DNA of 64,000 bases from Mobula hypostoma (GCF_963921235.1 NC_086108.1:186001-250000), one strand, 5' to 3'; shown: positions 20,350-53,549, counted from the first letter of the stretch. The notes: generated by a model from the sequence alone, not told the origin. Program-made: numbers and translations.

Positions 20350-20380
20350 TCACCCTTTCCAGCTCTTTGCAGATTCAGTC
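20350..20380 (-). pseudogene. CEP350: CEP350-like exon with frameshift and premature stop (R-TESAKSWKG*)
   Basis: Acceptor ttttgttttcAG, phase 2. Matches recalled CEP350 RSETAKNWK, then TGA at 20350-20352. Similarity (GEGSNVSLSCI vs SERSRGSLESI) resumes in a shifted frame. Confidence 0.7.
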
Positions 20381-21040
20381 CTGAAAACAAAAAGCAGAAA
20401 ACTAATTTTGAGTTTAAGAGCTTGGCAGATAAATATCATATTGTCTTTGGAATTTTGCAGTGACAAAGGATCGCAGATCGACATTGTAGACTGCTTTTCT
20501 TTTCACAAATTCTGCCTGATTCCGTGCACGTTACAGCAAGCTACTCACAACATTTCTGAGCCAAATCCCAGAGTCTCAAAAGCACAGCAAATTTTACAGA
20601 TTATCATTAAACTGCAGAATAGAGTGAATTATGTCACTGGATGGAACAGTCAGCTATTGAAAGAAAACCTGCTAGAAATTTAGGGAAACTTTTTGAAAAC
20701 AGAAATCAAAATATCACAGATGCTGGAAATGTAAAGAGAATGACAGAAATATTCAGCAGGTGAAGCAGTGTCTAAAAAGAGAGAAACAGAATTACTGAAA
20801 TAATATTTCAAAAGTCACTGTCATTGTTTCATGCTCCACCTCCTCAGTAGAAAATACTGTACTACTCTTTAAAGAAGTCTGCTAAATAAATGAACGACAG
20901 TCACGTGCAACCTAATTTTTTAAAAAGTACTTTCAATAGGGGAGAAGGCCTCCCATTATGTTTAACTTATAAAACAGTGATACTACCAATATTCAGAGAA
21001 GTCTTTTTCCAACTGAGGCTGTATTGCCCAGTGACATTAC

Positions 21041-21171
21041 CTTTGCAGAGAAAGTGGTTTAGCCTTGGGCTTCTCAGCAGCAATGGAGGAAGGGGTTTTG
21101 ATTTGTGGTTTGGTGGAACTGGACACTTTGCTTAGTTTTGCTGGAGTCCTTTTAATTATTTCATTACAGGA
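21041..21171 (-). CDS. CEP350: CEP350-like internal exon (SCNEIIKRTPAKLSKVSSSTKPQIKTPSSIAAEKPKAKPLSLQR)
   Basis: AG/GT boundaries, 131 nt, phase 0->2. Matches recalled human SYDEFIKKTEAELS..TAKPQIKTLSSASEKPKIKPLTPLHR. Confidence 0.85.
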
Positions 21172-22193
21172 CTGGTAATACAAGAGAAAGAAAAAGATTA
21201 AATGTTGAAAGGTTCATTTTATTGTCGAAGTATGCACGTACAACTCTGATATTTGTCTTCTCCAGATAGCCCTGAAATACAGAAAGACCATGAGAGTTGA
21301 AGAAAGAAAAGACACCAATTCTCCCCCACCATCAGTATGAAAAAGAAAAGAAACAATAACAACCCCCAACTCCCTGACTCACAGAAAAAAACAGCGACAA
21401 TAACAATCTGCAATCCCCTGACTCACAGAGAAAAACAGCGACAATAACAATTCCCGACCTGCTCACTTGCAGAAAAATCAGGGACAATAGCATTAAATCC
21501 ACACTGCTCCCCCACAGGAAAAAAATTATAATAACAATCCCCGACCCCCTCGCCTGCAAAAAAGAACAGTGACAGTAGCATCAAAACCCCCAACCCCCAC
21601 CTTACACACAAAATATTTACAGCTCACCCACCCACCCACCAACCAGCCACAATTAAGAAAACACCAAAAACCTGAAGGAAACCAATATAAAGTACAGTCC
21701 AAAATTCACATATGTCTCAGAATATTGGAAACAACTTTCCATCAGCATACGAAGGCAGTGGCTGCAAACTCAACAAATCAGCAAAAGCATTTTCAACTTA
21801 ATAAATCCAATTTTAGTTGGTAAATTAATCAAGGCTGACAACTGAAAATATTCAGAGGATGGCAAATCAATTTGGCTAAATGCTGTAAAAAATAAATTGT
21901 AAAGACTGCAACAATCCAGATTTCTCCAAACTTTCAGAAAGCGTTGCCTCCTGCTGCTTTAACATAGCAGATACAAAGCAGGAGAATAGCAGCAATTGGG
22001 GAGAGACAACCGAACGTACTATTGAGTGCTGCATAATTTTCAAAGACTTTGAAAGTCAGAAGCAATATAGCAATGCAAAGAGCCTTAAGAATGAGTTGAG
22101 GGTGATATAAAGGATTTTCCAGCAATGGAACAGAAACAAAAAGAATAAAGGTAGATCAAGCCCTTTGAATAATCATATACTTAATTTCCTCAA

Positions 22194-22264
22194 ACACGAG
22201 GAAATCTGCAGATGCTGGAATTTCAAGCAACACACATAAACGTTCACCAGCAACTTTTATGTGT
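22194..22264. mobile_element. 71-bp inverted Penelope-end micro-insertion
   Basis: Two opposed pLTR pieces between a perfect 16-bp TSD TACTTAATTTCCTCAA (22178-22193 and 22265-22280). Confidence 0.75.
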
Positions 22265-22415
22265 TACTTAATTTCCTCAACAATTTTCCAAATTAAACAA
22301 TGAATATTGTGGATAGCAAATTGATTTTGGAGTAGTATATACTTACAAGTTTCTTATTGCCCTAATCAAAGACTGGCAGGACAGTCAAGGTAAGAAGGTA
22401 CGACGATAATCTTAC

Positions 22416-22573
22416 CGTTAGCTCTTTAATGAGACTGGCCTCCTGTGCCTTCAATCTCTCCTTCTGAAGCTTCTGCTCTTTCTTCAATTTGTTTACAACA
22501 GGTTTATGTTTCCTCAGATCATCTTTCAGTGCATGAATCCTGCCCTCGATATCACTCTGCTCAGATACTTTCT
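22416..22573 (-). CDS. CEP350: CEP350-like coiled-coil exon (EKVSEQSDIEGRIHALKDDLRKHKPVVNKLKKEQKLQKERLKAQEASLIKELT)
   Basis: ctaacAG and ACG|GTAAG boundaries, 158 nt, phase 1->0. Matches recalled human SDQSDIEGRIRALKDELRKRKSVVNQLKKEQKKRQKERLKAQEASLIKQLE. Confidence 0.92.
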
Positions 22574-24067
22574 CTGTTAGGGATGCAATCAAATCAAAGT
22601 TATAATAGGTAGTAGCTTCCAATTCAACCAATTATTTATCATTCAAAATACATATCTCAGCAGGGTGAAATCAACTAACAATTTTACTTAGTTTCTATTC
22701 ATTTATTGCTACTTGAAGCTTAAATTTCCAATTGAAATCCACCTGATTCAATGCAGTAATAGCTGCAAGAATTAAATGGAAACTCTCACATACCATTTTG
22801 TTTTGTTTATCACACATGTCCTGAGATCCCCAGTGGCAGGAAATGCATTTTGATTTTGACACTGTCCTCCTGGTACCATTCTCCTGTAAATATAATCAAA
22901 AGCTGTCACTGTACAGTGCAATCAGATCCATAACTCACTAAATGCACTCTTAAAGCTCAGAATACGAGTAACACACAGCTGAGCAAAGCAATAGACTCTC
23001 AAATGCCTTCTTAATTGGCCCAGTAAGCCAATAGATGAAGGGCAAACAGGGAAGGAAAGAAATACTGATATCCCCCAAAATACTAATTATGCACATCGAG
23101 CCCCAACCTCGTCGGACGCCGACCGGCCAGAGTCACAGCCTCGTTGGAGACGTGGCTCACACTCTCAACAGCAAATACAGTTGTGGACTCATTGAGATCA
23201 TAAACAGGGGAACATCAGGAAACAATTTAAATATAAAATCGGATTTAAAAAAAAATGGAAGCTAATGGTGAGCATTGCATCAATAGGCAGAGAAACACTT
23301 GCTGCAAAATAGAGTACGTGCAGCATTTCGCTAACCAAAGTTAGAACTCACTGACCACTGCTTTTAAACCTTTTCCTTTCTGTGGTACAAATCTTGCCAG
23401 TGTAGTTTTCACATTGATTTCCAGAGTTCAATTTGATTCAGGCTATTTAATCCCACACCCAGCCTCATTAAAGGCAGTCACTCAAATCACCTGTAAATAC
23501 TGCACTAACTCTGACCATGGAAGGTCAAAATGGGCATGGAGGAACAGATTACTGAAAAGCAAACATTCCTTAAGAGCACTGTTGGTGACACCTCCCATTA
23601 CTTTTATGATAGGACAGTAATTAGCCAGATCGGATAGACTCTGTTTTTGGTGGATAAAACGTAACTAGGGACATGTAGTTGCCACTGACAGACCTGTACT
23701 GGATATGCTTGGCATGCCAGGCATTTAGTTCTGAAGTGCAACTTTAAGCACGACACATCGGAGGTTGCCCATTTTCATTATTATTGCTTTTCCTGCTACT
23801 CGCTCATTCTTTGATTTGGCTGAAAACTACCATTATAACAGTGAGGACTTTGGGAGGAAGCACAGATGCATCATTCACTCAGTTCTTCCAGTTGAATATA
23901 GTTTCACAAAGTTCATTCCAGGCTCTGGTTTAACCGAAGGTGGGGATCTTTACTGGAGAAGTGTCCTCATGTTAGCTAACCTATCACCATCATGACTGTG
24001 TGAACCAGGGTGGCAGAACTTTGATAAGATCCATTGGTTGGGGAACTGCTGAACACTTAATTGAAGA

Positions 24068-25582
24068 TGAGAAAATCTGCAGATGTAGAAAATCCAAAGT
24101 AATACCCAGAAAATGCTGAAGGAACTCAGCAGGCCAGGCAACAGCTATGGAAAAGAGTTAACAGTCGTGGAATAGTCCATGTTTCGAACCTAAACGGGCA
24201 TCACTCCACAACTCTTCCTACGCTACAAAGATAACTGCATTGGTCCTGCTTCCAGCACCCATGCCGAGCTCATCAATTTCCTCAACTTTCTCCAATTTCC
24301 ACACTGCCCTCAACTGGCTCATTTCTGACACCTCTCTCCCCTTTCTCGATCTCTGTCTCCATCTTTGGAGACAGTTTATCTACTGATACTCTTCACAAAC
24401 CCACTAACTCTCACAGCTCTCTGGACAAGACGTCTTCCCGCCCTATCACTTGCAAAAATGCCATTCCCTAGCTTCAGTTCCTCCATCTCCACTGCATCTG
24501 CTCCCAGAATGAAGCTTTTCATTCCAGAACAACTGAGATATCCTCCTTCTTCAAAGGAAAGGGCTTCCTTTCCTCCACTATCAACGCAGCCCTCAACCAC
24601 ATTGCACATCACCCTCAACCCTTCCACCTGCCGCCACACGAGGGATAGGGTTCCTCTTGTCCTCACCTATCACCACACAAGCCTCTGCATCCCACATGTA
24701 ACTCTCTGCAACTTCTGCTATCTCCAAAGGGAGCCCACCACCAAGCACATCTTTCCATAGGAATCACTCCCTACACGACTCCCTTGTCCACTCGTCCCTC
24801 CCCACTGATCTCCCTCCTGGCACTTATCCTTGCAAGCAGAACAAGGGCCACACCTGCCCCTACACCTCCTTCCTCACTACCATTCAGGACCTCAAACAGC
24901 CCTTCCACGCCAGGCGACACTTCACCCGTGAGTCTGTTGGGATCACCTATTGTATCTGGTGCTGCCTCCTATATACTGATCAGACCAGACTGGGAGACTT
25001 ATGTCAAGCAGCTTTGCTCCATTTGCCACAAGAAGCGGGATTTTCCAGTGGCCAGCCATTCCAACTCTACTTCCCATTCCAATATGTCAGTCCATGGTGT
25101 CCTGTCACTGTGAGGCCACCCTCAGGTTGGAGGGGCAACAGCTTATTTTTTGTCTGGGTCATCTGCAAGCTGATGGCACAAACATCAATTTCTCAAACTT
25201 CCACTAACTGCCCTCTCCTCCTTTCCATTTGTTTCCTCTCTCACCTCAAATCTCATTACCTGCCCATCACCTCCCACTGGTGCTCCTCCTCCTTCCCTTC
25301 TTCAATGGTTCTCTGTCCTCTCCTGTCAAATACCCCCTACTCCAACCCTTTACCCCTTTCACCAATCAACTTCCCGGCTCTTTACTTTAACCACTCCACC
25401 TCTCCCAGTATCACCTATCACCTCCAACTTGTATCTCTTCCTTCCCTTCCCCCTACCTTCTTTTTCTGACTCCTTCTTCCTTCCGTTCCAGTCGTGAAGG
25501 TTTTCGGCCTGAAACATCGATTGCATACTCTTTTCCGTTAATGCTGTCTGGCCTGCTGAGTTCCTCCAGCATTATGTGTGAT
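24068..25582 (+). mobile_element. Penelope-like element, decayed, with inverted pLTR piece at its 5' end
   Basis: RT C-terminal remnant, RDRVPLVLTYH, GIY-YIG-region remnant, pyrimidine-rich UTR and degenerate hammerhead at ~25489. Confidence 0.8.
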
Positions 25583-25959
25583 GCATCTGTTTACTGCATG
25601 CTGCTTTTGCCATTTAACAAGCTGATGGTTCTGTGTAGCATCTCTATTCAGTTCAGATCACCCAATGCAACTTGTAAAACTTCTTTCTATACTCGCCACT
25701 GAACTGGCATTGGTCCCTAGCTTGATAGTAATGGTCAAAAGCAGTGATAGACCAGGCCTCGAGATTACAGTTTGCAGTTGAATACAATTCTTCTGATATG
25801 GACAATTGCAACCCTTCATGAGCAGCTAGATTTCCTGAGACTATCCCATCAGTACTGAGCTGTAATGTTAGCTGTGGTTACATGGAATTCTGTGAGTACC
25901 TACCAAGTATTTTCAATAAATACTGAAAAGCTCACACATAGCTGTTAGAAACTTCATAC

Positions 25960-26089
25960 CTGATTGAGTCACAGATATAGATTCGTCAGACGAGCTGCAG
26001 GATCCTTGGCGTGACTGTAAACTAGGGCTGGAGTTATTCTTCCTATCAGCTTCATTTGATGCAGGGACACTCACTTCTGAGGAAGCAGA
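25960..26089 (-). CDS. CEP350: CEP350-like internal exon (SASSEVSVPASNEADRKNNSSPSLQSRQGSCSSSDESISVTQS)
   Basis: cccttgtatAG and CAG|GTATG boundaries, 130 nt, phase 0->1, in frame with 22416-22573. End matches recalled human SWSDESLSMTQSE. Confidence 0.8.
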
Positions 26090-26901
26090 CTATACAAGGG
26101 CAAGGGAATGGCAATAGATTAGTTCCCGAGCTGTTAGTATTTTCTGATTTGATAAAATAAAGATTAGATGGGCAGGAAGCTTGCAAAAGTTTAACATCCA
26201 GCAACTTAAATTCTGTACATCTGTCCACTGGATTGCCCCCTCCCTGCCCTTTCAATGCGTCCCATTATATCCTTCCATATATTTCACTAAACTGCTCCAA
26301 CCTATTAGCCCAAACCCTCAAAGTTTAATGTTCATCTCAAACACGTTACCCTTGAAAGAACCACACAAGAAACACCCCCTTGACCAAATTGATCTAAAAA
26401 TAACCCACCAAATCATACCAAATAACACATAAACCTAAAGTAACACTAACATATAGTAAAAGCAGGAATGATACGATAAATACACAGTGTGGCAGCTCGC
26501 CCACGCGGCAAGCGAACCGGCTCCAGCAGTCGCGGGCGAGTCTGCAGCCAGCGGCAACCGAGAGGGCTCTGAGTGCGGGGCAGACCTCGGCCTGAAAGCT
26601 GACCTCACTTCTGCCCTGCAAAGAGCGGGGGATGCTGGGAGCAGGCACTTAAGCGTGCGCAGTTTGAAACAGTAAACAGTTCAACCAGACCATGCTCGAC
26701 TCAGTGTGTTGCTTTCACTCGTTGCATATCACCGCGACCACAACAGCCTATATAAAGTAGAAATAATATATGTACAGCAGTGGTCCCCAACCTCCGGGCC
26801 GCGGACTGATACCGATCCGTGAAGCATGCAGTGGTGCAGCGGTAGCCAGGACACACCCAGCACATTTTTTTAAAAAGGCTGAAATAAACAAGCTAATTAA
26901 T

Positions 26902-29900
26902 GCTGAGCTCGCTGCATTGGCACTGCTTCCTGCATGCATGCTAAGCTCATTGACTTCATTAACTTTGCCTCCAACTTTCACCCTGCCCTCAAGTTTATCT
27001 TTATACTTCATACTTTATACTTCATTGTCGCCAAACAATTGGTACTAGAATGTACAATCATCACAGCGATATTTGATTTTGTGCTTCACACTCCCTGATT
27101 ACAAATATTAAATATTAAAGATATTAAAAACAGTTAAAAATAGTAAACATTAAAAATTTAAATTTTACATCATACATAAAAAATAGAAAAATGGGAAGTA
27201 AGGTAGTGCAAAAAAACTGAGAGGCAGGTCCGGATATTTGTAGGGTACGGCCCAGATCTGGGTCAGGATCCGTTCAGCAGTCTTATCACAGTTGGAAAGA
27301 AGCTGTTCCCAAATCTGGCCGTACGAGTCTTCAAGCTCCTGAACCTTCTCCCGGAGGGAAGAGGGATGAAAAGTCTGTTGGCTGGGTGGGTCGTGTCCTT
27401 GATTATCCTGACAGCACTGCTCCGACAGCGTGTGGTGTAAAGTGAGTCCACAGACGGAAGATTGGTTTGTGTGATGTGCTGCGCCGTGTTCACGATCTTC
27501 TGCAGCTTCTTTCGATCTTGGACAGGACAACTTCCATACCAGGTTGTGATGCACCCGAGAAGAATGCTTTCTATGGTGCATCTATAAAAAATAGTGAGGG
27601 TTTTAGGGGACAGGCCAAATTTCTTTAGTTTTCTCAGGAAGTAAAGGTGCTGGTGGGCCTTCTTGGCAGTGAACTCTACTTGGTTGGACCAAGACAGGTC
27701 ATTTGTGATATTGACCCCAAGGAACTTAAAGCTTTTGACCTGTTCCACTTGCGCACCACCGATGTAAATTGGGTTATGCGGTCCGCTACTCCTTCTGAAG
27801 TCAGCAACCAATTCCTTCGTCTTGCTGACGTTGAGGGATAGGTTATTGTCTTCGCACCATGCCACCAGGTTCTTAATTTCCTCTCTGTACTCAAACTCAT
27901 CATTACCCGAGATATGGCCAACAATTGTTGTGTCATCAGCAAACTTATATATTGAGTTTGATGGAAACTTGGCTGCACAATCATGGGTATACAGTGAGTA
28001 GAGCAGGGGGCTGAGTACACAGCCTTGTGGGGCATCGGTGCTCAGAGTGATTGTAGAGGAGAGCTTGTCCCCTATTTTTACAGCCTGGGTCCTGTTTGTG
28101 AGGAAGTTGAAGATCCAGCTGCAGATCTGAGTGCTAAGGCCCAGGTTCCAGGAATCAGTTTATTTGGAATGATGGTATTAAAGGCAGAGCTGTTGTCAAT
28201 GAAAAGGAGCCTTACATATGCGTCTTTATTCTCCAGGTGTTCTAAGGAGGAATGTAGGGCCAGAGAGATGGCATTTGCCGTTGACCTGTTGCTCTGGTAG
28301 GCGAATTGCAAAGCATCGAGGTTGACCGGTAGGCTGTGGTTGATGTGTGCCAAAACCAATCTCTCGAAGCACTTCATATCAATTGATGTCAGAGCCACAG
28401 GTCGATAGTCGTTCAGGCATGCCACCTTCCTCTTCTTCGGCACTGGGATTATCGTTGCCTTCTTCAAACACGAGGAGATCTTAGACTGAAGGAAGAAGCA
28501 GTTGAAGATGTCAGCAAACACTCCAGCTAGCTCCCTTGCACAGGCCCAGAGAACCCGTCCTGGGACGCCATCTGGGCCCGTCGCCTTCCTTGGATTTATC
28601 TTCAGGAAGGCCCTTCTAACGTCCTCCTCGGTGACGATGAATCTCGATTCCACCAGGTCTGGTTCATCCGGAGGGAGCGGGATGCTCCTCTTCTGTTCGA
28701 ATATTGCGTAGAATACGTTAAGTTTGTCAGGAAGAGAAGCGCCACAGTTATTGATATTCCCAACCTTTTCTTTGCACCCAGTGATCTCATTCAGACCCTG
28801 TCATAGTCTACTGGCATCCCTTTGGTTAGCCTGGGCTTCCAACTTGGCCCAATATTGCCTCTTGGCGCCCTTAATGGCTTTCCGGAGTTCACACCTGGAT
28901 TCTGTGTAGTGACTGGTAACCCCGGACCTAAAAGCCGCAGCTCTAGCCTTTAAAAGTGACGACCTCATAATTCATCCAAGATTTCTGGTTAGGGGATACC
29001 CGGATCGCCTTGCGAGACACACAGTCCTCCGTGCACTTCCAAATAAAGTCCGTGACAGCTGAGGCATACTCATCGAGGTTAGCTCCGAGTCCTTGAATAC
29101 TAACCTTGAATACCTGGTCCATTTCCGACACCTCCCTCCCTTTTCTAGATTTTTCTGTCTCTATCTCTGAAGACAGCTTATCTACTGATGCCTACTATAA
29201 GCCTACGGACTCTCACAGCTATCTGGACTCTTCCTCTTCTCACCCTGTCTCTTGAAAAAATGCCATCCCCTTCTCGCAATTCCTCCATCTCCGCCGTGTC
29301 TGCTCTCAGGATGAGGCTTTTCATTCCAGGACAAAGGAGATGTCCTCCTTTTTTAAAGAAAGGGGCTTCCCTTCCTCCACTATCAACTCTGCTCTCAAAC
29401 GCATCTTCCCCATTTCATGCACATCTGCTCTCACTCCATCCTCCCACCACTCCACTAGGGATAGGGTTCCCTTTGTCTTCACCTACCACCCCACCAGCCT
29501 CCAGGTCCAACAAATAATTCTCCGTAACTTCCGCCACCTCCAATGGGATCCCACTAATAAACACATCTTTCCCTCTCCCCACTCTGCTTTCCGCAGGGAT
29601 CGCTCCCTACGTGACTCCCTTGTCCATTCGTTCCCCCCATCCCACCCCACCGATCTCCCTCCCGGCACTTATCCTTGTAAGCGGACCAAGTGCTGCACAT
29701 GCCTTACACTTCCTCCCTTACCACCGTTCAGAGCCCCAGACAGTCCTTCCCGGTGAGGTGACACTTCACCTGTGAGTCGGCTGGGGTGATATACTGCGTC
29801 TGATGCTCCCGATGTGGCCTTCTATATATTGGCGAGACCCGACGCAGACTGGGAGATCGTTTCGCTGAACACCTACGCTCTGTCCACCAGAGAAAGCAGG

Positions 29901-31353: not shown

Positions 31354-31433
31354 AGCCACTGTGATGTCATCAGCCACTGTGATGTCATCAGCCACTGTGA
31401 TGACATCAGCCACTGTGATGACATCAGCCACTG
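31354..31433. repeat. 18-bp minisatellite, 4.4 copies (AGCCACTGTGATG(T/A)CATC)
   Basis: Read directly from the sequence. Confidence 0.9.
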
Positions 31434-41700: not shown

Positions 41701-44442
41701 CTAGTCACCACCTGCCATTCCGAGAAACACCCATTCACTGCTACCCTTTGCTTTCTATCTGCCAACCAGTTTTCTATCCATGTCGATATCCTCCCCCCAA
41801 CGCCATGAGCTCTGATTTTACCCACCAATCTCCTATGTGGTACCTTATCAAATGCCTTCTGAAAGTCAAGCTACACCACCTCCACTGGATCTCCCGCGTC
41901 TATCTTCCTGGTTACATCCTCGAAAATCTCCAATAGATTAGTCAAGCATGATTTGCCCTTGGTAAATCCATGCTGGGTCGGCCCAATCCTATCACTGCTA
42001 TCAAGATATACCGCTCTTTCATCTTTAATAATGGACTCTAGCATCTTCCCCACTATGGATGTTAGGCTAACAGGGCGATAGTTCTCTGTTTTCTCCCTCC
42101 CTCCTTTCTTAAAAAGTGGGATAACATTAGCCATTCGCCAATCCTCAGGAACTGATCCTGAATCTAAGGAACATTGGAAAATGATCACCAATGCATCTGC
42201 AATTTCCAGAGCCACCTCCCTCTACAATTTGAGAGGGAGAAAGGAAACTCGGAAGTGTCAGTATTACAGTTGAACAAAGGGAACTATGGTGCTATGAGGG
42301 AGGAGCTGGCCAAAGTTCAATGGAACAATACTCTAGCAGGGATGACAGTGGAACAGCAATGGCAAGTGTTTCTGGGAATAATGCGGAAGGTGCAGGATCA
42401 GTTCATTCCAAAGAGGAAGAAAGATCTTAAGGAGAGTAAGGGGAGGCCATGGCTGACAAGGGAAGTAATGGACAGTATAAAAAAAAGAGAAGTATAACAT
42501 AGCAAAGATGAGTGGGAAGCCGGAGGATTGGGAAACTTTTAAAGAGCAACAGAAGGTAACTAAAAAGGCAATACGCGGAGGAAAAATGAGGTACGAAGGT
42601 AAACTAGCCAAGAATATAAAGGAGGATAGTAAAAGCTTCTTTAGGTATGTGAAAAGGAAGAAAATAGTTAAGACCAAAATTGGGCCCTTGAAGACAGAAG
42701 TGGGTGAATTTATTATGGGGAACAGGAAATGGCAGTCGAGTTGAACAGGTACTTTGGATCTGTCTTCACTAGGGAAGACACAAACAATCTCCCAGATGTA
42801 ATAGTGGCCAAAGGACCTAGGGTAATGGATGAATTGAGGGAAATTTATATTAGGCATGAAATGGTGTTGGATAGGCTGTTGGGTCTGAAGGCTGATAAGT
42901 CCCCGGGACCTGATGGTCTGCATCCCAGGGTACTTAATGAAGTGGCTTCAGAAATCGTGGACGCATTGGTAATCATTTTCCAATGTTCTATAGATTCAGG
43001 ATCAGTTCCTGTGGATTGGAGGGTGGCTAATGTTGTCCCTCTCTTCAAGAAGGGAGGAAGAGAGAAAACAGGGAATTATAGACTGGTTAGCCTGATGTCG
43101 GTGGTGGGAAAGATGCTGGAGTCAATTATAAAAGATGAAATTACGACACATCTGGATAGCAGTAACAGGATTGGTCCAAGTCAGCATGGATTTACGAAGG
43201 GGAAGTCGTGCTTGACTAATCTTCTGGAATTTTTTGAGGGTGTAACTATGAAAATGGACAAGGGAGAGCCAGTGTACCTGGACTTTCAGAAAGCCTTTAA
43301 TAAGGTCCCACATAGGAGATTAGTGGGCAAAATTAGAGCACATGGTATTGGGGGTACAGTACTGACAGGGATAGAAAATTGGTTGGCAGACTCGAAACAA
43401 AGAGTAGGGATTAATCGGTCCCTTTCAGAATGGCAGGCAGTGACTAGTGGGGTACCACAAGGCTCGGTGCTGGGACCGCAGCTATTTACAATATACATTA
43501 ATGATTTAGATGAAGGGATTAAAAGTAACATTAGCAAATTTGCAGATGACACAAAGCTGGGTGGCAGTGTGAAATGTGCGGAGGATGTTGAGATAATGCA
43601 GGATGACTTGGACAGGTTGGGTGTGTGGGCAGATGCAGTTTAATGTGGATAAATGTGAGGTTATCCACTTTGGTGGCAAGAACAGGAAGGCAGATTACTA
43701 CTTGAATGGTGTCAAGTTAGGAAAACGGGAAGCACAACAAGATCTTGTACATCAGTCACTGAAAGCAAGCATGCAAGTACAGCAGGCAGTGAAGAAAGCT
43801 AATGGCATGCTGGCCTTCATATCAAGGGGAATTGAGTATAAGAGCAAAGAGGTCCTTCTGCAGTTGTACAGGGCCCTGGTGAGACCACACCTGGAGTGCT
43901 GTGTGCAGTTTTGGTCTCCAAATTTGAGGAAGGACATTCTTGCTATTGAGGGAGTGCAGCGTAGGTTCACAAGGTTAACTCCCGGGGGAATGTCATATGT
44001 TGAAAGACTGGAGCGACTGGGCTTGTATACTCTGGAATTTAGAAGGCTGAGAGGGGATCTTATTGAAACATATAAGGTTATTAAGGGATTGGACACGCTG
44101 GAGGCAGGAAGCACGTTCCCGCTGATGGGTGAGTCCAGAACCAAAGGCCACAGTTTAAGAATAAGGGGTAGGCCATTTAGAACGGAGTTGAGGAAAAACT
44201 TTTCCACCCAGAGAGTGGTGGATATATGGAATGCTCTGCCCCAGAAGGTTCTGGAGGCCAAGTCTCTGGATGCTTTCAAGAAAGAAATGGATAGAGCTCT
44301 TAAAGATAGCAGAATCAAAGGTTACGGGGATAAGGCAGGAACTGGATACTGATTGTGGATGATTAGCCATGATCACAGTGAATGGTGGTGCTGGCTCAAA
44401 GGGCCGAATGGCCTACTCCTGCACCTACTGTCTATTGTCTAT
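38738..44442 (+). mobile_element. Near full-length CR1 LINE (ORF1 zinc finger + SGNH esterase; ORF2 APE + RT), inactivated
   Basis: CAAC..CGKC, VVVGDSIVRG, HVGTND and DGLHLN; GITETW, IYRPP, GDFN and SDH; KSPGPDG, QGSVLGP and FADD; (TCTATTG)n tail. Contains stops and frameshifts. Confidence 0.92.
40682..42219 (-). mobile_element. 5'-truncated CR1 inserted antisense into the 38738-44442 CR1
   Basis: Minus-strand RT ORFs 41871-42215, 41031-41828 and 40770-41009; same TCTATTG tail. The host reads through the site (AAGTTT..TCTACAATTTGAG). Confidence 0.92.
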
Positions 44443-44519
44443 TAACGATTTAATCTGCGAGATGTAGATGATTTCAGCTGAGCTGACATCTTGTAGATGA
44501 TTTACAGCTCAGTTCAAAG

Positions 44520-47500
44520 CGACATCTCAGCTCAATCAGGGTCGGGAATTAAATATCAGGTAATACGGTAGGATAGGCAGGAAGGTAAGGGAGGTGGGGT
44601 AGCACTCTTAATTAAGGATGAGATCAGGGCAACAGTGAGAGACGATATAAGATCTTCTAAGAAGCAGAATATTGAATCCATCTAGGCAGAAATTAAGGAA
44701 CAGTCAGGGAAAAAAAATCACTGGTGAGAGTTGTCCATCAGCCACCGAATAATAACATTACAGTGGCACAGGCAATAAACAGAAATATCTCAGGCATGTA
44801 AGAATGGAACAGCAGTTATCATGGGAGACTAACTTGCACAAAGATTGGGTGAATCAAGTTGATCAGGACAGTCTTGAGGAGGACTTCACAGAATGCATAA
44901 ATGATGGCTTTCTTGAACAGCATGTTACTTAACCTACAAGAGAATCTGTTATCTTAGATCTGGTCCTGTGCAATAAGACAGGTAAAACTAGTGATCTTGT
45001 AGTTAGGGATCCTCTTGGAAAGATTGATCACAGTATGATTTAGTTTCCCATACAAATGGAGGGTGCAAAAGTTTGATATAAAACTGTTGTGTTATGTCTA
45101 AACCATGGAGACTACAATGGGATGAGGAAGGATTTGGCTAGTGTCGACTGGGAACACAGGCTATATGGTGGGACTATTGAGGAACAGTGGAAGACTTGCA
45201 AAGAGATTTTTCATGGTGCTCAATAAAAGTATATTCCAGTAAAAAGCAAGGACAGTAAGGGTGGGGAGAGCCAGTCTTGGATGACTAAGGATATAAAAGA
45301 AGGCGTCAAACTAAACACTTGTGAATAGAAAGCCTCCAAGTGTAGTGGGAAACTGGAAGACTGGGAAAACTTTAAAAAGCAACAAAGGACCATCAAGCAA
45401 GTAATAACAAAAGGGAATAAAGAAAGAAAATAAAGAAAATATAAAAACTGAGAGTTAAAGTTTTTATAATTATATAAAGTGGAAAAGGGTGGCTAAAGTG
45501 AACATAGGTTCCTTGGAGGATGAGAAGTGGGAATTGATATTGGGCAACGAGGAAATGGCAGAAGCTTTGATTGACTATTTTGTGTTGGTCTTCACGGGGG
45601 AGGACATGTTTAACATGCCAAAGAGATATGTTATGGAAGTGATGGGAGGTGAAGACCTCGATACAATAGCTATCATTAAAGAGGTAGTGCTGAGCAAACT
45701 TGTGGGCCTGAAGATATATAAGTCCTCTGGTCCTGATGGAATGTATCCTGGTGTCCTAAAAGAGATGGCAGAAGATATAGTAGAGGCTTTGGTGAGAATC
45801 CACTAAAATTCTCTGGACTCTGGGCGGGTTCTGGTGGATGAGGAGACAGCGAATGTCACGCCACTGTTCAAAAAATGATGTAGGCAAAAGCAGGTAACTA
45901 TAGATCAGTAAGTTTAATATCTGTAGTTCGGAAAATGCTTGAAGCTATCATTAAAGAAGAAATAGCAAGACATCTGGCAAGAAATGGATCCATCAGGCAG
46001 ATGCAGCATGGATTCAGCAAAGGCAGATCCTGTTTGACAAACTTACTGGAGTTCTTTGAGCTTATAATGAGCGCAGTGGATACAGGAGAACAGATGGACG
46101 TTATTTACTTGGATTTCTGGAAGGTGTTTGATAAGGTGCTGCATAAAAGACTTATCAATAAGATAAGGATGCAAAGAGTTGGGGTGATGTATTAGCATGG
46201 ATACAGGATTGGTTAACTGAAAGAGAGCAGAGTTGGGATACATGGGTGTTACTCTGGTTGGCAATCAGTGGTGAGCGGTGGTGCCGTATGGGTCGGTGCT
46301 GGGCCTGCAACTGTTCACGATATATATTAACGATCTCGAAGAGGGAATCGAGTGTAGTGTATCTAAGTTTGCTGATGATACCAAACTGAGTGGAAAAGTA
46401 AATTGTGCAGAAGATACAGAGAATACGTATAGATAGGTTAGGTGAGTGGGCAAGGGTCTAGCAGATGGAGTACTATGTTGGTAAATGCGAGGTCATCTAC
46501 TTTGGAAGGAAAACTGGAAGAGCAGATTATTATTTAAACGGTAAAAATTTCCATCATGCTGCTGTGCTGAGGGACTTGGGAGTAATTACGCATGAGTCAC
46601 AAAAGGTTGGTTTGCAGGTGCAGCAGACTATCACAAAAGCAAGTGGAATGTTGGTCTTCATTACCAGAGGGACTGAATTGAAGAGCAGGAAGGTTATGCT
46701 GCAACTCTACAGGGTACTGGTGAGGCTGCACCTGGAGTACTGCAGGCAGTTCTGGTCTCCTTACTTGAGGAAGGATATACTGGCTTTGGAGGCGGTGCAG
46801 AGGAGGTTCACCAGGTTGATTCCAGAGATGAGGAGTTTAGACGATGAGGAGAGATTGAGTAGCCTGGGACTGTACTCGCTGGAATTCAGAAGAATGAGAG
46901 GAGACCGTATAGAAACATACAAAATTATGAAGGAGATAGATCAGATAGAGGCAAGAAAATTGTTTCCACTGGTAGGTGAGTCTAGAACTAGGGGACGTAG
47001 CCTCAAGATTTGGGGGAAGTGATTTAGGATGGAGATGAGGAGGAACTGCTTTTCCCAGAGGGTGGTGAATCTGTGGAATTCTCTGCCCAATGAAGCAGTG
47101 GAAGCTACCTCAGTAAATATAATTAAGACAAGGTTGGATAGATTTTTGCACAGTAGGGGAATTAGGCATAGTCATACTTTATTGATCCCAGGGGAAATTG
47201 GTTTTCGTTACAGTTGCACCATAAATAATAAATAGTAATAAAACCATAAATAGTTAAGTAGTAATATGTAAATTACGCCAGGAAATAAGTCCAGGACCAG
47301 CCAATTGGCGCAGGGTGTCTGACCCTCCAAGGGAGGAGTTGTAAAGTTTGATGGCCACAGGCAGGAATGACTTCCTATGATGCTCTTTGTTGCATCTCGG
47401 TGGAATGAGTCTCTGGCTGAATGTACTCCTGTGCCCACCCAGTACATTATGTAGTGGATGGGAGACATTGTCCAAGATGGCATGCAACTTGGACGGCATC

Positions 47501-48640
47501 CTCTTTTCAGACACCACCGTCAGAGAGTCCAGTTCCATCCCCACAACATCACTGGCCTTACGAATGAGTTTGTTGATTCTATTGGTGTCTGCTACCCTCA
47601 GCCTGCTGTCCCAGCACACAACAGCAAACATGATCGCACTGGCCACCACAGACTCGTAGAACATCCTCAGCATCGTCCGGCCGATGTTAAAGGACCTCAG
47701 TCTCCTCAGAAAGTAGAGACAGCTCTGACCCTTCTTGTTGACAGCCTCAGTGTTCTTTGACCAGTCCAGTTTATTGTCAATTCGTATCCCCAGGTATTTG
47801 TAATCCTCCACCATGTCCACACCGACCCCCTGGATGGAAACAGGGATCACCGGTACCTTAACTCTCCTCAGGTCTACCACCAGCTCCTTAGTCTTTTTCA
47901 CATTAAGCTGCAGATAATTCTGCTCACACCATGTGACACAGTTTCCTACTGTAGTCCTGTACTCAGCCTCATCTCCCTTGCTGATGTATCCAACTATGGA
48001 AGAGTCATCAGACAATTTCTGAAGATGACAAGACTCTGTGCAGTAGTTGAAGTCCGAGGTGTAAATGGTGAAGAGAAAGGGAGACAAGACAGTCCCCTGT
48101 GGAGCCCCAGTGCTGCTGATCACTCTGTCGGACACACAGTGTTGCAAGCACACGTACAATGGCCTGCCAGTCAAGTAGTCAAGAATCCATGACACCAGGA
48201 AAGCATCCACCTGCATTGCTGTTAGCTTCTCCCCCAGCAGAGCAGGGCGGATGGTGTTGAACGCACTGGAGAAGTCAAAAAACATGACCCTCACAGTGCT
48301 CGCTGGGCAGGTGTCCAGGTGGGCGTAGACACGGTGCAGCAGGTAGACAATGGCATCCTCAACTCCTAGTTGGGGCTGGTAGGTGAACTGGAGCGGATCT
48401 GAGTGTGGCCTGACCATAGGCCAGAGCAGCTCCGGAACAAGTCTCTCCAGGGTCTTCGTGATGTGGGAGGTCAATGCCACCGGTCTGTAGTCATTGAGGC
48501 CACTGGGTTCTTGGGAAAAGGCAGGTAGGTGGAGATGAGTCGATGGCCAGATCAGCCATGATCTTATTAAATGGTGGAGTAGGCTTGATGGGCCAGATGG
48601 CCTACTCCTGTTCCTTTTTCCTATTTCTTATGTTCTTATG
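44520..48640 (+). mobile_element. Older CR1 ORF2 copy, interrupted near its 3' end by Rex1/Babar
   Basis: Decayed APE/RT. GGAATTAGG (47166) resumes as GGTTCTTGGGAAAAGGCAGG (~48506). Confidence 0.88.
47168..48505 (-). mobile_element. Rex1/Babar LINE RT, 5'-truncated (408-aa ORF 47254-48480)
   Basis: ALTSHITKTLERLV, FFDFSSAFNTI, GAPQGTVLSPFLF, LSDD (from FSDD) and RKSFLPVAIKLYN. Confidence 0.93.
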
Positions 48641-49560
48641 TAGGAGGTGGCAGTCTGGTGCTTATGGTCTCACTCCAAGGCTTGACTGATGAGAAATTTC
48701 CACTTTGTATAAGGTGCTGTTCTGGTCTCGGGGGCCCATCTATGTTCTCCTGAATATCAGGCAGCTTTTTGTGTGTCGGGCATAGAATGGAATCGAGATA
48801 TGAGGACATGAGTTCAGTGGGGCAGTAGCAGGCAGAGACAACAGGCCTACCCGGAGAGTCCGTTCTGTGGATCTTTGGTGGGAGGTAGAAGCGAGCAGTG
48901 CAGGGTTAGGGAACTACGAGTTTGGTAACAGTGGTTGGGAGATCTCCAGAGTGGATGAAGTCAGTGATGTGTCGGAGACAGTTTTCTGATGGTGTGGAGT
49001 GGGGTCGTCCTCGAGGGGTAGGTGTGAGGAAGTGTCTGAGAGTCGCCGCCTGGCCTCAGCAAAGTAGAGGTCAGTGGGCCACACTACAACAGCATCCCAT
49101 TCGCCTGCCAGTTTGATGGTCAGGTTGGGATTGGTGCAGGGAGAGTAGAGGGCAGTGCATTCAGTGGAGGAGTGAAGCAGTGATGAAGTCGAGATGGTTG
49201 ATGTCCCGTCGGCAATTCGAGATCAGAAGATCTACCCTCCCTCCTTGTCACCACTCCAAGCCCACTGCCAACATCGAGAGTGCCAACTTACCACAGGGAT
49301 TGAAACATCAAGTCCTAGTAGCTCTACTACTATTGGAGAGCATTCTAACCGGCTGCATCACTGGTCTGGTATGGAGGGGCCACTGCACAGGATTGGAAAC
49401 AACTGCGGATGGTTGCAAACTCAGGCGGCTCCAACACAGGATATAGCCCACCCCCTCCCCCTCAGCATCAAGGACATCTTCAAAAGGTGATGCCTCAGAA
49501 AGTCGGCATCCATTATGAAGGACCCCCCATCACCCAAGACACGCCCTCTTCTCATTGCTA

Positions 49561-49917
49561 CCATCAGGGAGGAGGAACTGGAGCCTGAAGACACACACCC
49601 AATGATTCAGGAACAGTTTCTTCCCCTCCGCCATCAGGGAGGAGGTACAGGAGCCTGAAGACACACACTCAGCGATTCAGGAACAGTTTCTTCCCCTCCG
49701 CCATCAGGGAGGAGGTACAGGAGCCTGAAGACACACACTCAGCGATTCAGGAACAGTTTCTTCCCCTCCGCCATCAGGGAGGAGGTACAGGAGCCTGAAG
49801 ACACACAACCAATGATTCAGGAACAGTTTCTTCCCCTCTGCCATCAGGGAGGAGGTACAGGAGCCTGAAGACACACACCCAGTGATTCAGGAACAGTTTC
49901 TTCCCCTCTGCCATCAG
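49561..49917 (+). repeat. Five 70-bp tandem units within a Rex1/Babar 3' end
   Basis: CCATCAG at 49561, 49631, 49701, 49771, 49841 and 49911. The unit encodes PSGRRYRSLKTHTQRFRNSFFPSAIR. Confidence 0.95.
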
Positions 49918-50495
49918 ATTTCTGAATGGACACTGAACCCATGAACACCACCTCGCTGCTTTCTTTGCTCTCATTTTGCACTCTTTAAATTTTGTATCAG
50001 GATCAGGTTTAACATCGCCGGCATACGTCATGAAGTTTGTTAACTTTGCTGGAGCGGCACAATGCAATAACAAGCGAATTACAGCAAGTATATGTACAGT
50101 ATATTAAATAGATAAACTTAGATAAGTAGTGCAAAAAACAGAAAATTTACAAAAAGAAGTAATGAGTTCATGGGTTCAATGTCCATTTTGAAATCTGTGT
50201 GTATAAGCTATCTTATGTTTTCATATTTATTCTGTTTTTTTTAAATTACAGTGTTCTTTATCTTACTGTGTTGGTCATCTTGTGTTTTTTTTTGTCCTGT
50301 ATCAGATCTGGAGTTACATTTATTTTGTTCTCCTTTACACTTGACATTAACCAATCGTGGAGTTCTCCTGCGTTCCGAGAATCAATCAGTAACTTCACTG
50401 AGGAACTGAATCGACTTGCAGCATCTAAGGTCCCTCTTTTGGGCAACACTCTACGAGCAAGCTGGGTGCATCGGAAGCTTTCAAACTCCCCTTAC

Positions 50496-50595
50496 CTTCG
50501 AATATTACTTGCTGCTGGCTTTCCACCTGACCGGCCTCCTTCGGGAGAGGAGCCCAAAGAAACGTGCGGTAATCTCTAGCTGTACTCAGTCCAAC
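50496..50595 (-). CDS. CALCOCO2: SKICH-domain exon 2, CALCOCO2/TAX1BP1-like (VGLSTARDYRTFLWAPLPKEAGQVESQQQVIFE)
   Basis: ttttgccgcAG and AAG|GTAAG boundaries, 100 nt, phase 0->1, in frame with 53257-53427. Compare TAX1BP1 VGWSTARDYYTFLW and CALCOCO2 QQEVQF. Family is secure; paralog is uncertain. Confidence 0.85.
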
Positions 50596-52484
50596 CTGCG
50601 GCAAAACGGAAGGATAGCTAAAAGCCAAAGAGCTGTGCAGGTAGATCACAAAACTACAAGACATAAAGCACTGTGCAAAAGGCTCAGGTATATAGTGGGG
50701 TGCCCAAGACTTTTAGACAGTACTGTACTAAATTTATGTATCACACAGAATCAGGTTTATTATCACCGGCATGTGTCATATAATTTATCCAATTAGCAGC
50801 GACCGTTCAATGCAACACGTAATGTAGAAGAAAAAAAGAAAAATAAATAAGTAAATCAATTACAGTCTATGCATGTTGAATAGATTGTGCAGAAACAGAA
50901 ATAATATAGATTAAAAAAGCGAGGTAGTGTCCAAGGGTTCAATGTCCATTTGGGAATCGGATGGCAGAGAGAAAGAAGCTGTTCCTGTGCTGTCAGGCTG
51001 CTGTCCCTCCTACCTGATTGTAACAGTGAGAAAAGGGCATGACCTGGTGCTGGCGGTCCTTAATAATGGACGCTGCCTTTCTGAGACACCGCTCCTTGAA
51101 GATGCCCTGGGTACTTTGTAGACTAGTACCCAAGATGGAGCTGACTAGATTCACCACCCTCTGCAGCTTCTTTCGGTCCTATGCAGTAGCCCCCACCTCC
51201 CCCCACCCCCATATCTGACAGTGTCAGAATGCTCTCCACGGAAGTTTTCGAGTGCATTTGTTGACATACCAAATCTCTTCAAACTCCTACTCTGTAGCTC
51301 TCAATTCTGTACTGCTGCCATGAAGAATAAAATTTCACGACATATGTGAGTGACAATAAACCTGATTCTGATGTGGGTGTCTATTGTGGACTGAGAGTAG
51401 AAGGGGGCAGGGAGAGGGGAATCATGGTTGGGAAAAGGGAAAGGGAGAGGGGAGGGAGCGGGAAGCACCAGAGGGACATTCTGTAATGATCAATAAACCT
51501 ATTGTTTGGAATCAGATGACCTTGCCTGCTCTCTCAGGGCTGGGTGTGTTTGCTCCTGCCTCTGGCACTCCTTCTCTGCCACCTGTCCCACACCCCTCCC
51601 GCAGTGCTCCGTCCTCACCATTCCCAACGTCCTTTACTCCCATCGGATTTACAAGCTCACTCTCCGCTCCACATTGACAACTTTTGCACTGTACTGTAGT
51701 TAAGCAGCATCTGTAAAAAAAAGACAAAACTAGTCAATCTAGATTATTTCATCCTCTCCCCTCCCATCAGACAGATGGATAAAGTGCCACCCGGTTCCAG
51801 GTTAGTTTTTAACCTGCTGTTATAGGACTACTGAACGATCCCCGAACAGGATAACATAGACTCTTAACCTCACAATGTACCTCATTGTAACTATTCACTT
51901 TATTATCTGCTGGCGTTGCACTTTCTGAGTAACTGTAATATATTCTGCACTCTGTTATTGTCTTCCCTCAATTGTCGTGTTGGAATGAAATAATCTCTGC
52001 GGAGGGCACGCGAAGCAAGTATTTTCACTGTCTCTTAGTTCATTGGTTATGGGCCACGTCGCCTGACATCATCACGCGCCGTGTTGCGTGACGTGGGCGA
52101 TCACGGTCTTTCCATGACCATGATTGTTCTTGGCAAATTTTTCTACAGAAGTGGTTTGCCATTGCCTCCTTCTGGCCAGTGTCTTTACAAGACAGCTGAC
52201 CTCACCCCAGCCACATTATCAATACTCTTCAGAGATTGTCCGCCTGGCGTCGGTGGTCACATAACCAGAACTTGTGATCTTCACCGGCTGCTCATACGAC
52301 CATCCACCGCCTGCTCCCATGCTTTCATGTGACCCTGATCGGGGGGTGGCGGCTACGCGGGTGCTACACCTTGCCCAAGGGTGACCAGCAGGCCAGCAGA
52401 GGGAAGCAGCGCCTCACACCTCCTTTGGTAGAGATTCATCTCCACCCCGCCACCCACATGTCCCTCAGTACATGTGACAATAGT

Positions 52485-52675
52485 AAGGGGTGGGATTCCA
52501 CGGTAGCGTAGTGGTTCGCGTGAGGCCATTACAGCTCAGGGCATTGGGATTGGTGTTAAAATCCTGCACCCTCAGTCAGCACGTTTGTGTGGTCTTCCTG
52601 TGTGCTCGTGGGTTTCCCCTTGGTGCTCCGGGTCCCTCACACAGAACAAAGACGGGTAGGTTAATAAGTTAATTC
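52485..52675 (+). mobile_element. tRNA-derived V-SINE remnant
   Basis: A-box-like GGTAGCGTAGTGG and V-domain-like CGTGGGTTTCCCCTTGGTGCTCCGG. Similar remnant at ~7555-7730. Confidence 0.55.
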
Positions 52676-53140
52676 TCATTCCCGCATGTCGATCCATGGC
52701 CTCCTCTCGAGCCAAGATGAGGCCACCCTCAGGGTGGGGGAGCCCCAACACTCATATTCCATCTGGGTAGCCTCCAACCTGATGGTATGAACATTGATTT
52801 CTCCTTCCGGTGAACAAAATTCACCCCCCCCCCACCATTCCCGGCTCTGACCTTCCACTTCTTCTCACCTGCCTTCCCTTTCTCCAATGGTTCACTCTCC
52901 ATCTCCAGTCAGACTCTTCCTTCTCTCGCCCCCTTGACCTTTCCCACTCACCTGGCTTCACCTAGCACCTTCCAGTTAGCCTCTCCCACCTCCCTCCCAC
53001 CCCCACCATTTTATTCAGGCATCGTCCCCCTTCCTTCTCAGTCCTGAAGACGACTCTCCGCCCAAAGCATCACCGGTTTTACTCCTTTCCATGGGTGTTG
53101 CCTGATGTGCTGCAGTTCCTCCAGCAGTTTGTGTGTGTTG
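52676..53140 (+). mobile_element. Penelope 3' fragment
   Basis: GATGAGGCCACCCTCAGG..GGGTAGCCTCCAACCTGATGG and pLTR tail, as in other copies in the window. Confidence 0.75.
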
Positions 53141-53256
53141 AGAGGTTGGGTTTAAAATTGGTGGGGGCTGCTCGAAGGGCCTATCCTGTGCTGTGTCTCT
53201 AAATCGATAAACCGATTACTATTTTGTATTTGCGGGGGGTGGGGGGGGGTTCTTAC

Positions 53257-53427
53257 CTTGAAAATTCCAATCCAGTCGTTCTTATGGGGTGTGATCCTGG
53301 GGGTCAAGGTGTAATTGCATTTTACAGCAACGTCTCTCATGTACTGCTTTTCGACGTTGACAGAGATTACTTGGGCGAAGGTGCTGGAGTACAGTGAAGA
53401 GGTGCCAGTCAATGACTCTTCGTTCAT
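53257..53427 (-). CDS. CALCOCO2: First coding exon of a CALCOCO2/TAX1BP1-like SKICH gene (MNEESLTGTSSLYSSTFAQVISVNVEKQYMRDVAVKCNYTLTPRITPHKNDWIGIFK)
   Basis: Acceptor ttgtttctctctttgttgctcAG (exon starts at 53437), ACCATG start, donor AAG|GTAAG. SKICH signature FAQV..NVEK.Y..C.YTL..P..DWIGIFK. Paralog is uncertain. Confidence 0.88.
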
Positions 53428-53549
53428 GGTGTCCAGACTGAGCAACAAAGAGAGAAACAAAATGTATTTAGCCACAGTGTCTGAGATCTCCTTCATAGGG
53501 GGAAAAAAACACCTTTATGATGCCAGACCACAGACGTAGGAACAGAATC

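Follow-up and report, generated by a model that had tools for sequence, protein, structure and literature searches.

The window analysed here, a 64,000-nucleotide stretch of the Mobula hypostoma genome, carries on its minus strand two exons of a CALCOCO2-like/TAX1BP1-like SKICH domain and four internal exons of CEP350, all with GT-AG sites. Read along that strand, the region runs from a CALCOCO2-like/TAX1BP1-like 5′ flank with exons 1 and 2, through about 23 kb of LINE-rich spacer, to the four CEP350 exons and a stub of a PP2A-A exon. AG or GT was present at every internal boundary of the six exons, and the coordinates and intact splice sites given in a first-pass annotation of this DNA were reproduced.

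The CALCOCO2-like-derived segment (49471..55124, minus strand) showed 82–88% identity in blastn to C91:61.675-61.680 Mb. Exons 1 and 2 lie within it together with the intron between them, preceded by no less than 1.7 kb of 5′ flank and followed by about 1 kb of intron 2; the segment's upstream limit is a minimum, since the C91 sequence compared ended at 61,680,000. Because at least 1.7 kb of the parental 5′ flank was co-duplicated, this flank may include a promoter. SKICH exon 1 (53257..53427, minus strand) starts with an ATG at 53427 and encodes 57 codons with 93% identity to the parental protein P0030, and exon 2 (50496..50595, minus strand) adds 33 codons and one nucleotide. Homology to the parent ends at a 70-bp tandem repeat of five copies (49561..49917), and this satellite is also plentiful in the surroundings of the parental CALCOCO2-like gene, on C91:61.4-69 Mb.

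The two exons were compared with the SKICH profile of Pfam (PF17751). Exon 1 matched profile positions 5–38 of 103 (E 3e-8, 34.5 bits, cutoff 23.4), and exon 2 on its own matched positions 39–69 (E 0.011, 16.7 bits). The closest solved structure is the TAX1BP1 SKICH domain (5z7g_A, E 1.5e-11), followed by that of NDP52/CALCOCO2. The encoded part, positions 5–69, amounts to about two thirds of the fold, which is incomplete because exon 3 is absent. The core Trp of the parental motif VGWST is replaced by Leu in the window copy and by Arg in the other amplicon copies. The third SKICH exon, which encodes parental residues 89–148, was found by tblastn neither in the window, as the first-pass annotation had also noted, nor in any amplicon copy; only the C91 parent and a distant C62 paralog carry it. 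With eight CALCOCO family proteins as queries, five of them longer than 500 aa, the tblastn matches in the window were confined to residues 1–91, and no exon for the native coiled coil or the UBZ zinc finger was detected there. A CALCOCO-type receptor combines SKICH, coiled coil and a C-terminal UBZ, and the window locus does not hold this combination.

Between the two gene fragments lies a spacer of about 23 kb (26179..49470), rich in LINE fragments and repeats and shared with both other mosaic copies described below. Six ORFs of 150 aa or longer in it have LINE matches, five to RVT_1 (27266-28159, 28081-28800, 41034-41870, 42708-43640 and 47257-48627) and one to Exo_endo_phos (40099-40608), and the contig depth over the spacer was in the thousands for most bins. 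A further partial spacer copy adjoins the region, and a contig end is 186-250 kb away.

The CEP350-derived segment (20085..26178, minus strand) showed 81–92% DNA identity in blastn to C50:16.25-16.27 Mb. Its four exons, all on the minus strand, are a (25960..26089), b (22416..22573), c (21041..21171) and d (20300..20380, with an approximate 3′ limit). Exons b and c align with residues 868–979 of an elephant CEP350, and the tail of exon a matches the residues just before these. Exon b encodes a charged, helical, coiled-coil-like sequence that is 73–78% identical in protein to bird and mammal CEP350 and corresponds to about residue 1,850–2,300 in full-length CEP350 representatives of 2,500–3,500 aa. 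Together, the exons cover about residues 825–1009 of the partial elephant query rather than a full gene, and tblastn detected no CEP350 exon other than these four in the window, in agreement with the first-pass annotation. For the last exon, that annotation had placed the start correctly, but its interval 20380-20350 holds only the first part, as homology continues to about 20295. Compared with the parental gene, exon d carries an 11-nt deletion that causes a frameshift and a TGA at 20352-20350; the deletion is common to four copies and absent from the C50 parent and from the PP2A-A-linked copy at C40:36.35. The segment also includes a stretch (25449..25517, minus strand; tblastn, 87% over 23 aa) that matches the first coding exon of the Mobula birostris CEP350–PP2A-A chimeric model P0006. 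Farther along lie an exon stub and acceptor of a PP2A scaffold subunit (PPP2R1-like; 18936..18965, minus strand), truncated by a deletion that the copy at C40:27.77 Mb lacks.

In the window copy, splicing of 53427-53257, 50595-50496, 22573-22416, 21171-21041 and 20380-20350 yields 591 nt encoding 196 aa with a terminal stop, and replacing SKICH exon 2 by 26089-25960 yields 621 nt and 206 aa, in frame. Both frames had been reported in the first-pass annotation, which proposed that a CALCOCO promoter and N-terminus may have captured a centrosomal coiled coil and so recreated the CALCOCO-like architecture. On this reading, a functional protein of 196 or 206 aa would be made. The intact ATG, open frame and canonical splice sites of this copy would allow such a product. 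Phase compatibility is, however, weak evidence for a fusion, because one junction in three would match by chance. Moreover, the SKICH fold is truncated, and the coiled-coil part ends at the frameshift-derived stop codon of exon d.

Comparison with the rest of the genome showed that the region belongs to a segmental duplication. The unit (15431..57742, about 42 kb by blastn) is colinear with C40:27.737-27.782 Mb, in inverted orientation, and with C40:31.352-31.412 Mb, and homology to the latter extends down to window position 14310. The three mosaic copies are about 94–95% identical, spacer included, with the same strand and order of the SKICH and CEP350 parts in all; this constancy counts in favor of the fusion reading. 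The blocks exceed 1 kb and 90% identity and include introns and repeats. A processed pseudogene was ruled out, since the CALCOCO2-like segment and the CEP350 segment each keep their parental introns. The proposal of a duplication mosaic was upheld, and the search for intact parents elsewhere recovered both: the full CALCOCO2-like gene at C91:61,588,731-61,678,899 (minus strand) and the full CEP350 gene at C50:16,230,585-16,349,764 (minus strand). Only exons 1–2 of the former and a few internal exons of the latter were copied. Extra copies cover only residues 1–91 of the CALCOCO2-like protein, with 12 matches to SKICH exon 1 among 21 scored candidates; in CEP350, only the exon for query residues 874–933 is multi-copy, and exon b was found in 8 of 20 scored candidates.

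The repeats of the region, its distance from the contig end and the adjoining partial spacer copy could point to mis-joining between 26 and 50 kb during assembly. We regard such an artefact as extremely improbable: the window has no N, the order and the entire spacer recur colinearly at the two C40 loci, each with private indels and substitutions, and the CEP350/spacer junction is present at full length at three other loci.

The copies differ in their lesions. The five-exon ORF is intact in one of the three mosaics, that of the window; C40b lacks one nucleotide of SKICH exon 1, and its exon b acceptor has changed from AG to CG, whereas C40a lacks one nucleotide of exon c. Elsewhere, the copy at C40:42.08 has GTG in place of ATG, and stop codons interrupt SKICH exon 2 in the copy at C96:7.79 and both SKICH exons in that at C96:14.98. 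Both SKICH exons are intact in only two of the six amplicon copies from which both were recovered. The exons differ between the window and each C40 copy at 34 of 770 sites (4.4%), against a background substitution divergence of 4.76% and 4.72% over 37–40 kb. Copy-specific changes comprised 45 non-synonymous and 22 synonymous differences when pooled (omega 0.59, p 0.055) and 11 and 5 in the window copy alone. The pooled value is borderline below 1 and may be compatible with mild constraint on the amplicon exons. Overall, these rates suggest that the copies have drifted essentially neutrally since amplification, like a pseudogene.

A somewhat different picture emerged from dN/dS against the parents, a check proposed in the first-pass annotation. 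SKICH exons 1–2 gave dS 0.21–0.26, dN 0.04–0.05 and an omega of about 0.2 (8–11 non-synonymous and 11–13 synonymous differences), and the CEP350 exons gave an omega of about 0.55. Because the SKICH value falls below the roughly 0.55 expected under neutrality since the split, either the SKICH fragment or a full-length ancestor may have evolved under constraint during part of its history.

Gene models of the sister species Mobula birostris show how related fragments are annotated as spliced. Four SKICH models of 102–176 aa (P0035, P0065, P0037 and P0066) join SKICH exon 2 to stop-bearing exonised spacer or intron sequence. In P0035 and P0065, the terminal coding exon corresponds to exonised CEP350-intron sequence in the window (22794..22883, minus strand), which is bounded by an AG acceptor and a GT donor and contains a TGA in frame; in P0037 and P0066, it corresponds to exonised repeat-like sequence in the spacer (32978..33031, minus strand; tblastn, 94% over 18 aa). 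None of the sister-species models splices SKICH exon 2 in frame to a CEP350 exon, and SKICH and CEP350 motifs did not occur together in any of the 76 proteins scanned or of 61 further representatives. CEP350 exon b is instead joined to PP2A-A HEAT repeats in nine models; residues 169–736 of P0006, for example, align to residues 23–588 of the 589 of PP2A-A alpha. Models of this kind (P0006-P0008 and P0067-P0076) are annotated as “PP2A 65 kDa regulatory subunit A beta isoform-like”.

These results bear on two functional readings. The captured coiled coil found no support in the comparison: the frame is broken in two of the three mosaics, the exons diverge at the background rate, the 11-nt deletion is shared among copies, the acceptor at 22883-22794 with its in-frame stop lies upstream of exon b and is used in the sister-species models, and none of the proteins scanned combines the two motifs. 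We therefore consider a functional SKICH–CEP350 fusion very unlikely. The second reading is a different chimeric gene, in which the CALCOCO2-like promoter drives SKICH residues 1–90 followed by a novel tail of exonised CEP350-intron or repeat sequence, with a function such as that of a decoy for SKICH-binding adaptors. The four sister-species SKICH models have exactly this structure, the corresponding exons and splice sites are intact in the window, and the low omega of the SKICH exons against the parent is in line with it. However, one third of the SKICH β-sandwich is missing, the core Trp is lost in every amplicon copy, both SKICH exons are undamaged in only two of the six copies that yielded both, exon divergence equals the background, and no such protein model from the window's own genome appeared among the protein search matches, the support in the sister species coming from annotated models. 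This reading seems to us unlikely, though less so than the fusion.

We thus favor, as the probable explanation, that the region is one copy of a decaying mosaic amplicon of at least 42 kb, composed of fragments of three unrelated genes and drifting, from which no in-frame SKICH–CEP350 protein is expected. The CEP350 piece would first have been part of an older, amplified family of CEP350-exon/PP2A-A chimeric genes on C40. A degraded derivative of it, with most of PP2A-A deleted and the 11-nt frameshift in exon d, would then have been placed downstream of the duplicated CALCOCO2-like 5′ fragment, and the whole mosaic copied at least three times. Each copy has since gathered disabling lesions of its own, and it is by chance that the window copy has kept the open 196-aa frame. 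The amplicon is possibly transcribed. The sister-species models connect SKICH exons with an exon that lies within the CEP350-derived segment, which makes some form of chimeric transcript plausible; if the co-duplicated promoter is active, such transcripts would be non-functional or non-coding, running from SKICH exon 2 into stop-bearing exonised sequence. The alternative raised in the first-pass annotation, two dead fragments, comes nearer the truth than the fusion, but there are three fragments, which are multi-copy and in part probably transcribed.

A broader and more speculative reading, which we think has a small chance of being correct, is that C40 27-42 Mb is a Mobula-specific ampliconic array with inverted-repeat arms. 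Its core would be an expressed family of chimeric genes that fuse a CEP350 helical exon to a fast-evolving PP2A-A scaffold, and the duplicated CALCOCO2-like promoters, that of the window among them, would drive chimeric SKICH-stub/CEP350-segment transcripts whose role would be regulatory or at the protein level. If so, the array would parallel, in an elasmobranch, the families of ampliconic chimeric genes on mammalian sex chromosomes. In many sister-species models, CEP350 exons take the place of PP2A-A exon 1. PP2A-A is very highly conserved among vertebrates; if expressed, these models would represent a lineage-specific chimeric PP2A-A variant and a useful case of segmental duplication building new genes in cartilaginous fishes. 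As for the window, the result shows that an open frame with matching phases should not by itself be taken to mark a fusion gene; comparison of copies shows drift.

Exons 1–2 of the window descend from the CALCOCO family (CALCOCO2/NDP52, TAX1BP1 and the elasmobranch “CALCOCO2-like/TAX1BP1 homolog B-like” proteins), but the window differs from that family in lacking exon 3, the native coiled coil and the UBZ zinc finger. Likewise, its four consecutive internal CEP350 exons match the species' own C50 locus, but they represent about 140 of roughly 3,100 residues, without a CAP-Gly domain and with the frame broken in the fourth exon. The M. birostris CEP350-exon/PP2A-A models share with the window CEP350 exons b–d, the exon at 25517-25449 and, in its stub, one PP2A-A exon; whereas these models have a near-complete HEAT-repeat scaffold, the window has lost almost all of it and gained the upstream SKICH fragment. 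A literature search found no paper on such an elasmobranch mosaic. The closest parallel is with the pericentromeric and subtelomeric duplication mosaics of primates, which create chimeric pseudogenes or transcripts. The devil-ray unit resembles these in that fragments of unlinked genes stand side by side, introns included, and were re-duplicated as a block at about 95% identity; it lies close to a contig end and in clustered arrays, its open chimeric frames appear by chance, and its copies drift neutrally. The devil-ray mosaic, which is clustered and recently amplified, differs in occurring in an elasmobranch and in combining CALCOCO2-like, CEP350 and PP2A-A pieces.

All six exons of the first-pass annotation were borne out on the minus strand, together with their splice sites and in-frame joins. 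Two SKICH exons (53427-53257 and 50595-50496) and four CEP350-like exons, termed a (26089-25960), b (22573-22416), c (21171-21041) and d (from 20380), have AG/GT boundaries, and both proposed splice products, one of 591 nt (196 aa) and one of 621 nt (206 aa), are in frame. The Pfam SKICH profile matched exon 1 at E 3e-8, which is over the curated cutoff, and exon 2 at E 0.011; jointly, the two exons span profile positions 5-69 of 103. The closest solved structures were the TAX1BP1 SKICH domain (E 1.5e-11) and then the NDP52 SKICH domain. In comparisons with CEP350 of birds and mammals, exon b showed 73-78% identity (of 55 candidate proteins, 24 matched at E≤0.01), and it falls at about residue 1,850-2,300 of the full-length CEP350 representatives (62 matches at E≤0.001). 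The exons missing from either gene were sought by tblastn in the 64-kb window, and neither the third SKICH exon nor any CEP350 exon beyond a-d was found there.

Intact parents of both halves were located elsewhere in the host genome, which is 3.48 Gb in size. The CALCOCO2-like gene, also annotated as 'TAX1BP1 homolog B-like', lies on contig C91 (61,588,731-61,678,899) and encodes a protein of ~630 aa that occurs across sharks and rays (of 42 candidates, 36 matched at E≤0.001). The parental protein P0030, from Mobula hypostoma according to its source, matches the C91 exons at 98-100%, and the top protein matches came from devil rays (Mobula). An intact parental CEP350 occupies C50:16,230,585-16,349,764, on the same contig as the window (C50:186,001-250,000). 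The extra genomic copies of the CALCOCO2-like protein are limited to residues 1-91, and the only multi-copy part of CEP350 is the exon for query residues 874-933. At the DNA level, window 49,471-55,124 is homologous to the CALCOCO2-like locus (82-88% identity), including at least 1.7 kb of its 5' flank, a lower bound because the C91 sequence compared ended there, and window 20,085-26,178 is homologous to the CEP350 locus (81-92% identity). Because the parental introns are kept, the segments are DNA-level duplications, and an origin as retrocopies is ruled out. The window also carries a 70-bp tandem repeat (9998-14596; 66 copies, 95% match) and a related 70-bp array at 49561-49917; the region surrounding the parental CALCOCO2-like gene (C91:61.4-69 Mb) is very rich in the satellite of this second array.

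The SKICH-CEP350 arrangement is not a one-off fusion: both halves are multi-copy, and the whole arrangement is present in three mosaics. Genomic matches accounted for 12 of the 21 scored candidates for SKICH exon 1, 7 of 10 for SKICH exon 2, 8 of 20 for CEP350 exon b and 7 of 8 for exon c. Two segments of contig C40 (together the mosaics C40a and C40b), at 27.737-27.782 Mb (inverted) and 31.352-31.412 Mb, are colinear with window ~15.4-57.7 kb, spacer included, at substitution divergences of 4.76% and 4.72%. The CEP350/spacer junction (window 25,900-26,800) recurs at full length at three other loci and partially at three PP2A-A-linked loci. The repeated colinear unit and the recurrent junction exclude an assembly chimera, and the repetition of the unit makes the SKICH-CEP350 juxtaposition older than the most recent duplication round. 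Directly to the left of the window, part of the spacer is present once more (C50:168,070-177,565, equivalent to window 26,814-36,314). A dispersed, SINE-like repeat of ~255 bp (window 26488-26742; >30 copies on many contigs, 89-93%) lies ~300 bp past the upstream end (26,178) of the CEP350-derived segment. Two SKICH-exon-1 copies, at C40:42,332,878-42,336,930 and 42,677,916-42,681,581, are in mirror orientation ~345 kb apart, each with intron-2 sequence and 98% identity to window exon 1, which suggests a large inverted repeat (palindrome) inside the amplicon cluster.

A third parent is PP2A-A. In the sister species, M. birostris, gene models P0006-P0008 and P0067-P0076 link a near-complete PP2A-A HEAT scaffold to CEP350 exon b, either alone or accompanied by exons c and d; residues 169-736 of P0006 align with residues 23-588 of the 589 of PP2A-A alpha. 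A motif scan of 76 proteins found CEP350 and PP2A-A motifs together in nine. By exon-by-exon matching, C40:35.8-36.4 Mb holds eight or more PP2A-A-like exon sets, and there are others besides; the set at C40:36.34-36.36 Mb immediately follows CEP350 exons b-d, and exon d there is in frame. The sole PP2A-A remnant in the window is a 30-nt exon stub (18965-18936) that keeps its acceptor and, as comparison with the C40:27.77 copy shows, is truncated by a deletion. The C40:35.8-36.4 Mb cluster is an amplified PP2A-A (PPP2R1-like) scaffold family, and the sister-species models have CEP350 exons in place of its first exon. Four exon matches between this family and a locus on contig C22, probably the ordinary PP2A-A gene, gave 54-78% identity, which is low for a PP2A-A scaffold subunit. 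An older copy of exon b (68% identical) lies on the contig of the parental CALCOCO2-like gene, at C91:61,201,970-61,202,101 (locus L016), ~390 kb away from that gene.

The coding frame has fared unevenly among the copies. The TGA at 20350, taken in the first-pass annotation as the stop of the fusion, arises from an 11-nt deletion in exon d. Four copies have this deletion, namely the three mosaics (window included) and C40:31.53; parental CEP350 and the PP2A-A-linked copy lack it. Other lesions are private. SKICH exon 1 of C40b has lost one nucleotide, and the exon-b acceptor of C40b has changed from AG to CG; C40a lacks one nucleotide of exon c; the ATG of C40:42.08 has become GTG; and stops interrupt SKICH exon 2 in C96:7.79 and both SKICH exons in C96:14.98. 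Because of such lesions, the five-exon chimeric frame is intact in just one of the three mosaics; SKICH exons 1 and 2 are intact in two of the six copies having both. Every amplicon copy has lost the core Trp found in the parental 'VGWST', with Leu or Arg in its place.

Substitution rates were compared. Between the window exons and either C40 mosaic, 34 of 770 sites differ (4.4%), equal to the background. Pooled copy-specific substitutions comprised 45 non-synonymous and 22 synonymous changes, giving an omega of 0.59 (p 0.055 in a binomial test of equal-rate neutrality); in the window copy alone the numbers were 11 and 5. Among amplicon copies, pairwise omega, from very small counts, ranged over 0.28-2.75 in the SKICH exons and over 0.5-0.75 in the CEP350 exons. 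Against the parents, omega was ~0.55 for the CEP350 exons (dS ~0.2). However, the value for SKICH exons 1-2 was ~0.2 (dS 0.21-0.26), below what neutral evolution since the split would give, which points the opposite way to the other rate results; constraint may therefore have acted at an early stage, on the SKICH fragment or on a full-length ancestor.

Sister-species SKICH-stub models (102-176 aa) contain SKICH exons 1-2 and a terminal exon that maps to either of two window sites, namely exonised CEP350-intron sequence with an in-frame TGA (22883-22794), 220 bp upstream of exon b, or exonised repeat-like sequence (33031-32978). The terminal exon of one such model, P0037, is probably repeat-derived because the translation of a 197-bp tandem repeat in the window (16646-17362; 3.6 copies, 99% match) resembles it. 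No protein with SKICH and CEP350 motifs together was found among the 76 proteins scanned and 61 further representatives. No sequencing run on record as RNA was found, but six small runs were marked as RNA by a guess; read contigs from four of them were aligned to window 16001-36000; repeats dominated, leaving three usable rows. A 614-nt contig of set X3 covers 22685-22426 and 21172-21040, joining exon b to exon c, but on the upstream side it continues past the 22573 acceptor for 112 nt without splicing. Two contigs of set X2 terminate 9 nt past 22574, consistent with use of that acceptor, and one X2 contig has exon c flanked on both sides by unaligned sequence. Every covering contig has C at 22465, where the window has T, and the X1 and X3 contigs also have C at 22477; this combination is that of the PP2A-A-linked C40:36.35 copy and not of the window. 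The read contigs thus show only paralogous exon b and c sequences in spliced form. No CpG island was found upstream of the ATG in either the parent or the copy, and their comparison is uninformative. A 3.7-kb CT-rich low-complexity tract of (CTCC)n-like units (60217-63909) gives rise to long ORFs without stops in several frames, none of which matched Pfam.

The idea of a duplication mosaic thus stands, with fragments of three genes and not two, and that of a functional fusion is not supported, given a frame open in one of three mosaics and divergence at the background rate. Production of an in-frame SKICH-CEP350 protein is unlikely, and the open 196-aa frame of the window copy is best interpreted as one that drift has so far spared; judging from the gene models, chimeric transcripts that terminate in stop-bearing exons are plausible. 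In literature searches on Mobula segmental duplication, on CEP350 with PPP2R1B and on ampliconic elasmobranch sequence, no description of such a mosaic was found, and we consider the region to be, quite probably, a decaying tripartite mosaic amplicon.
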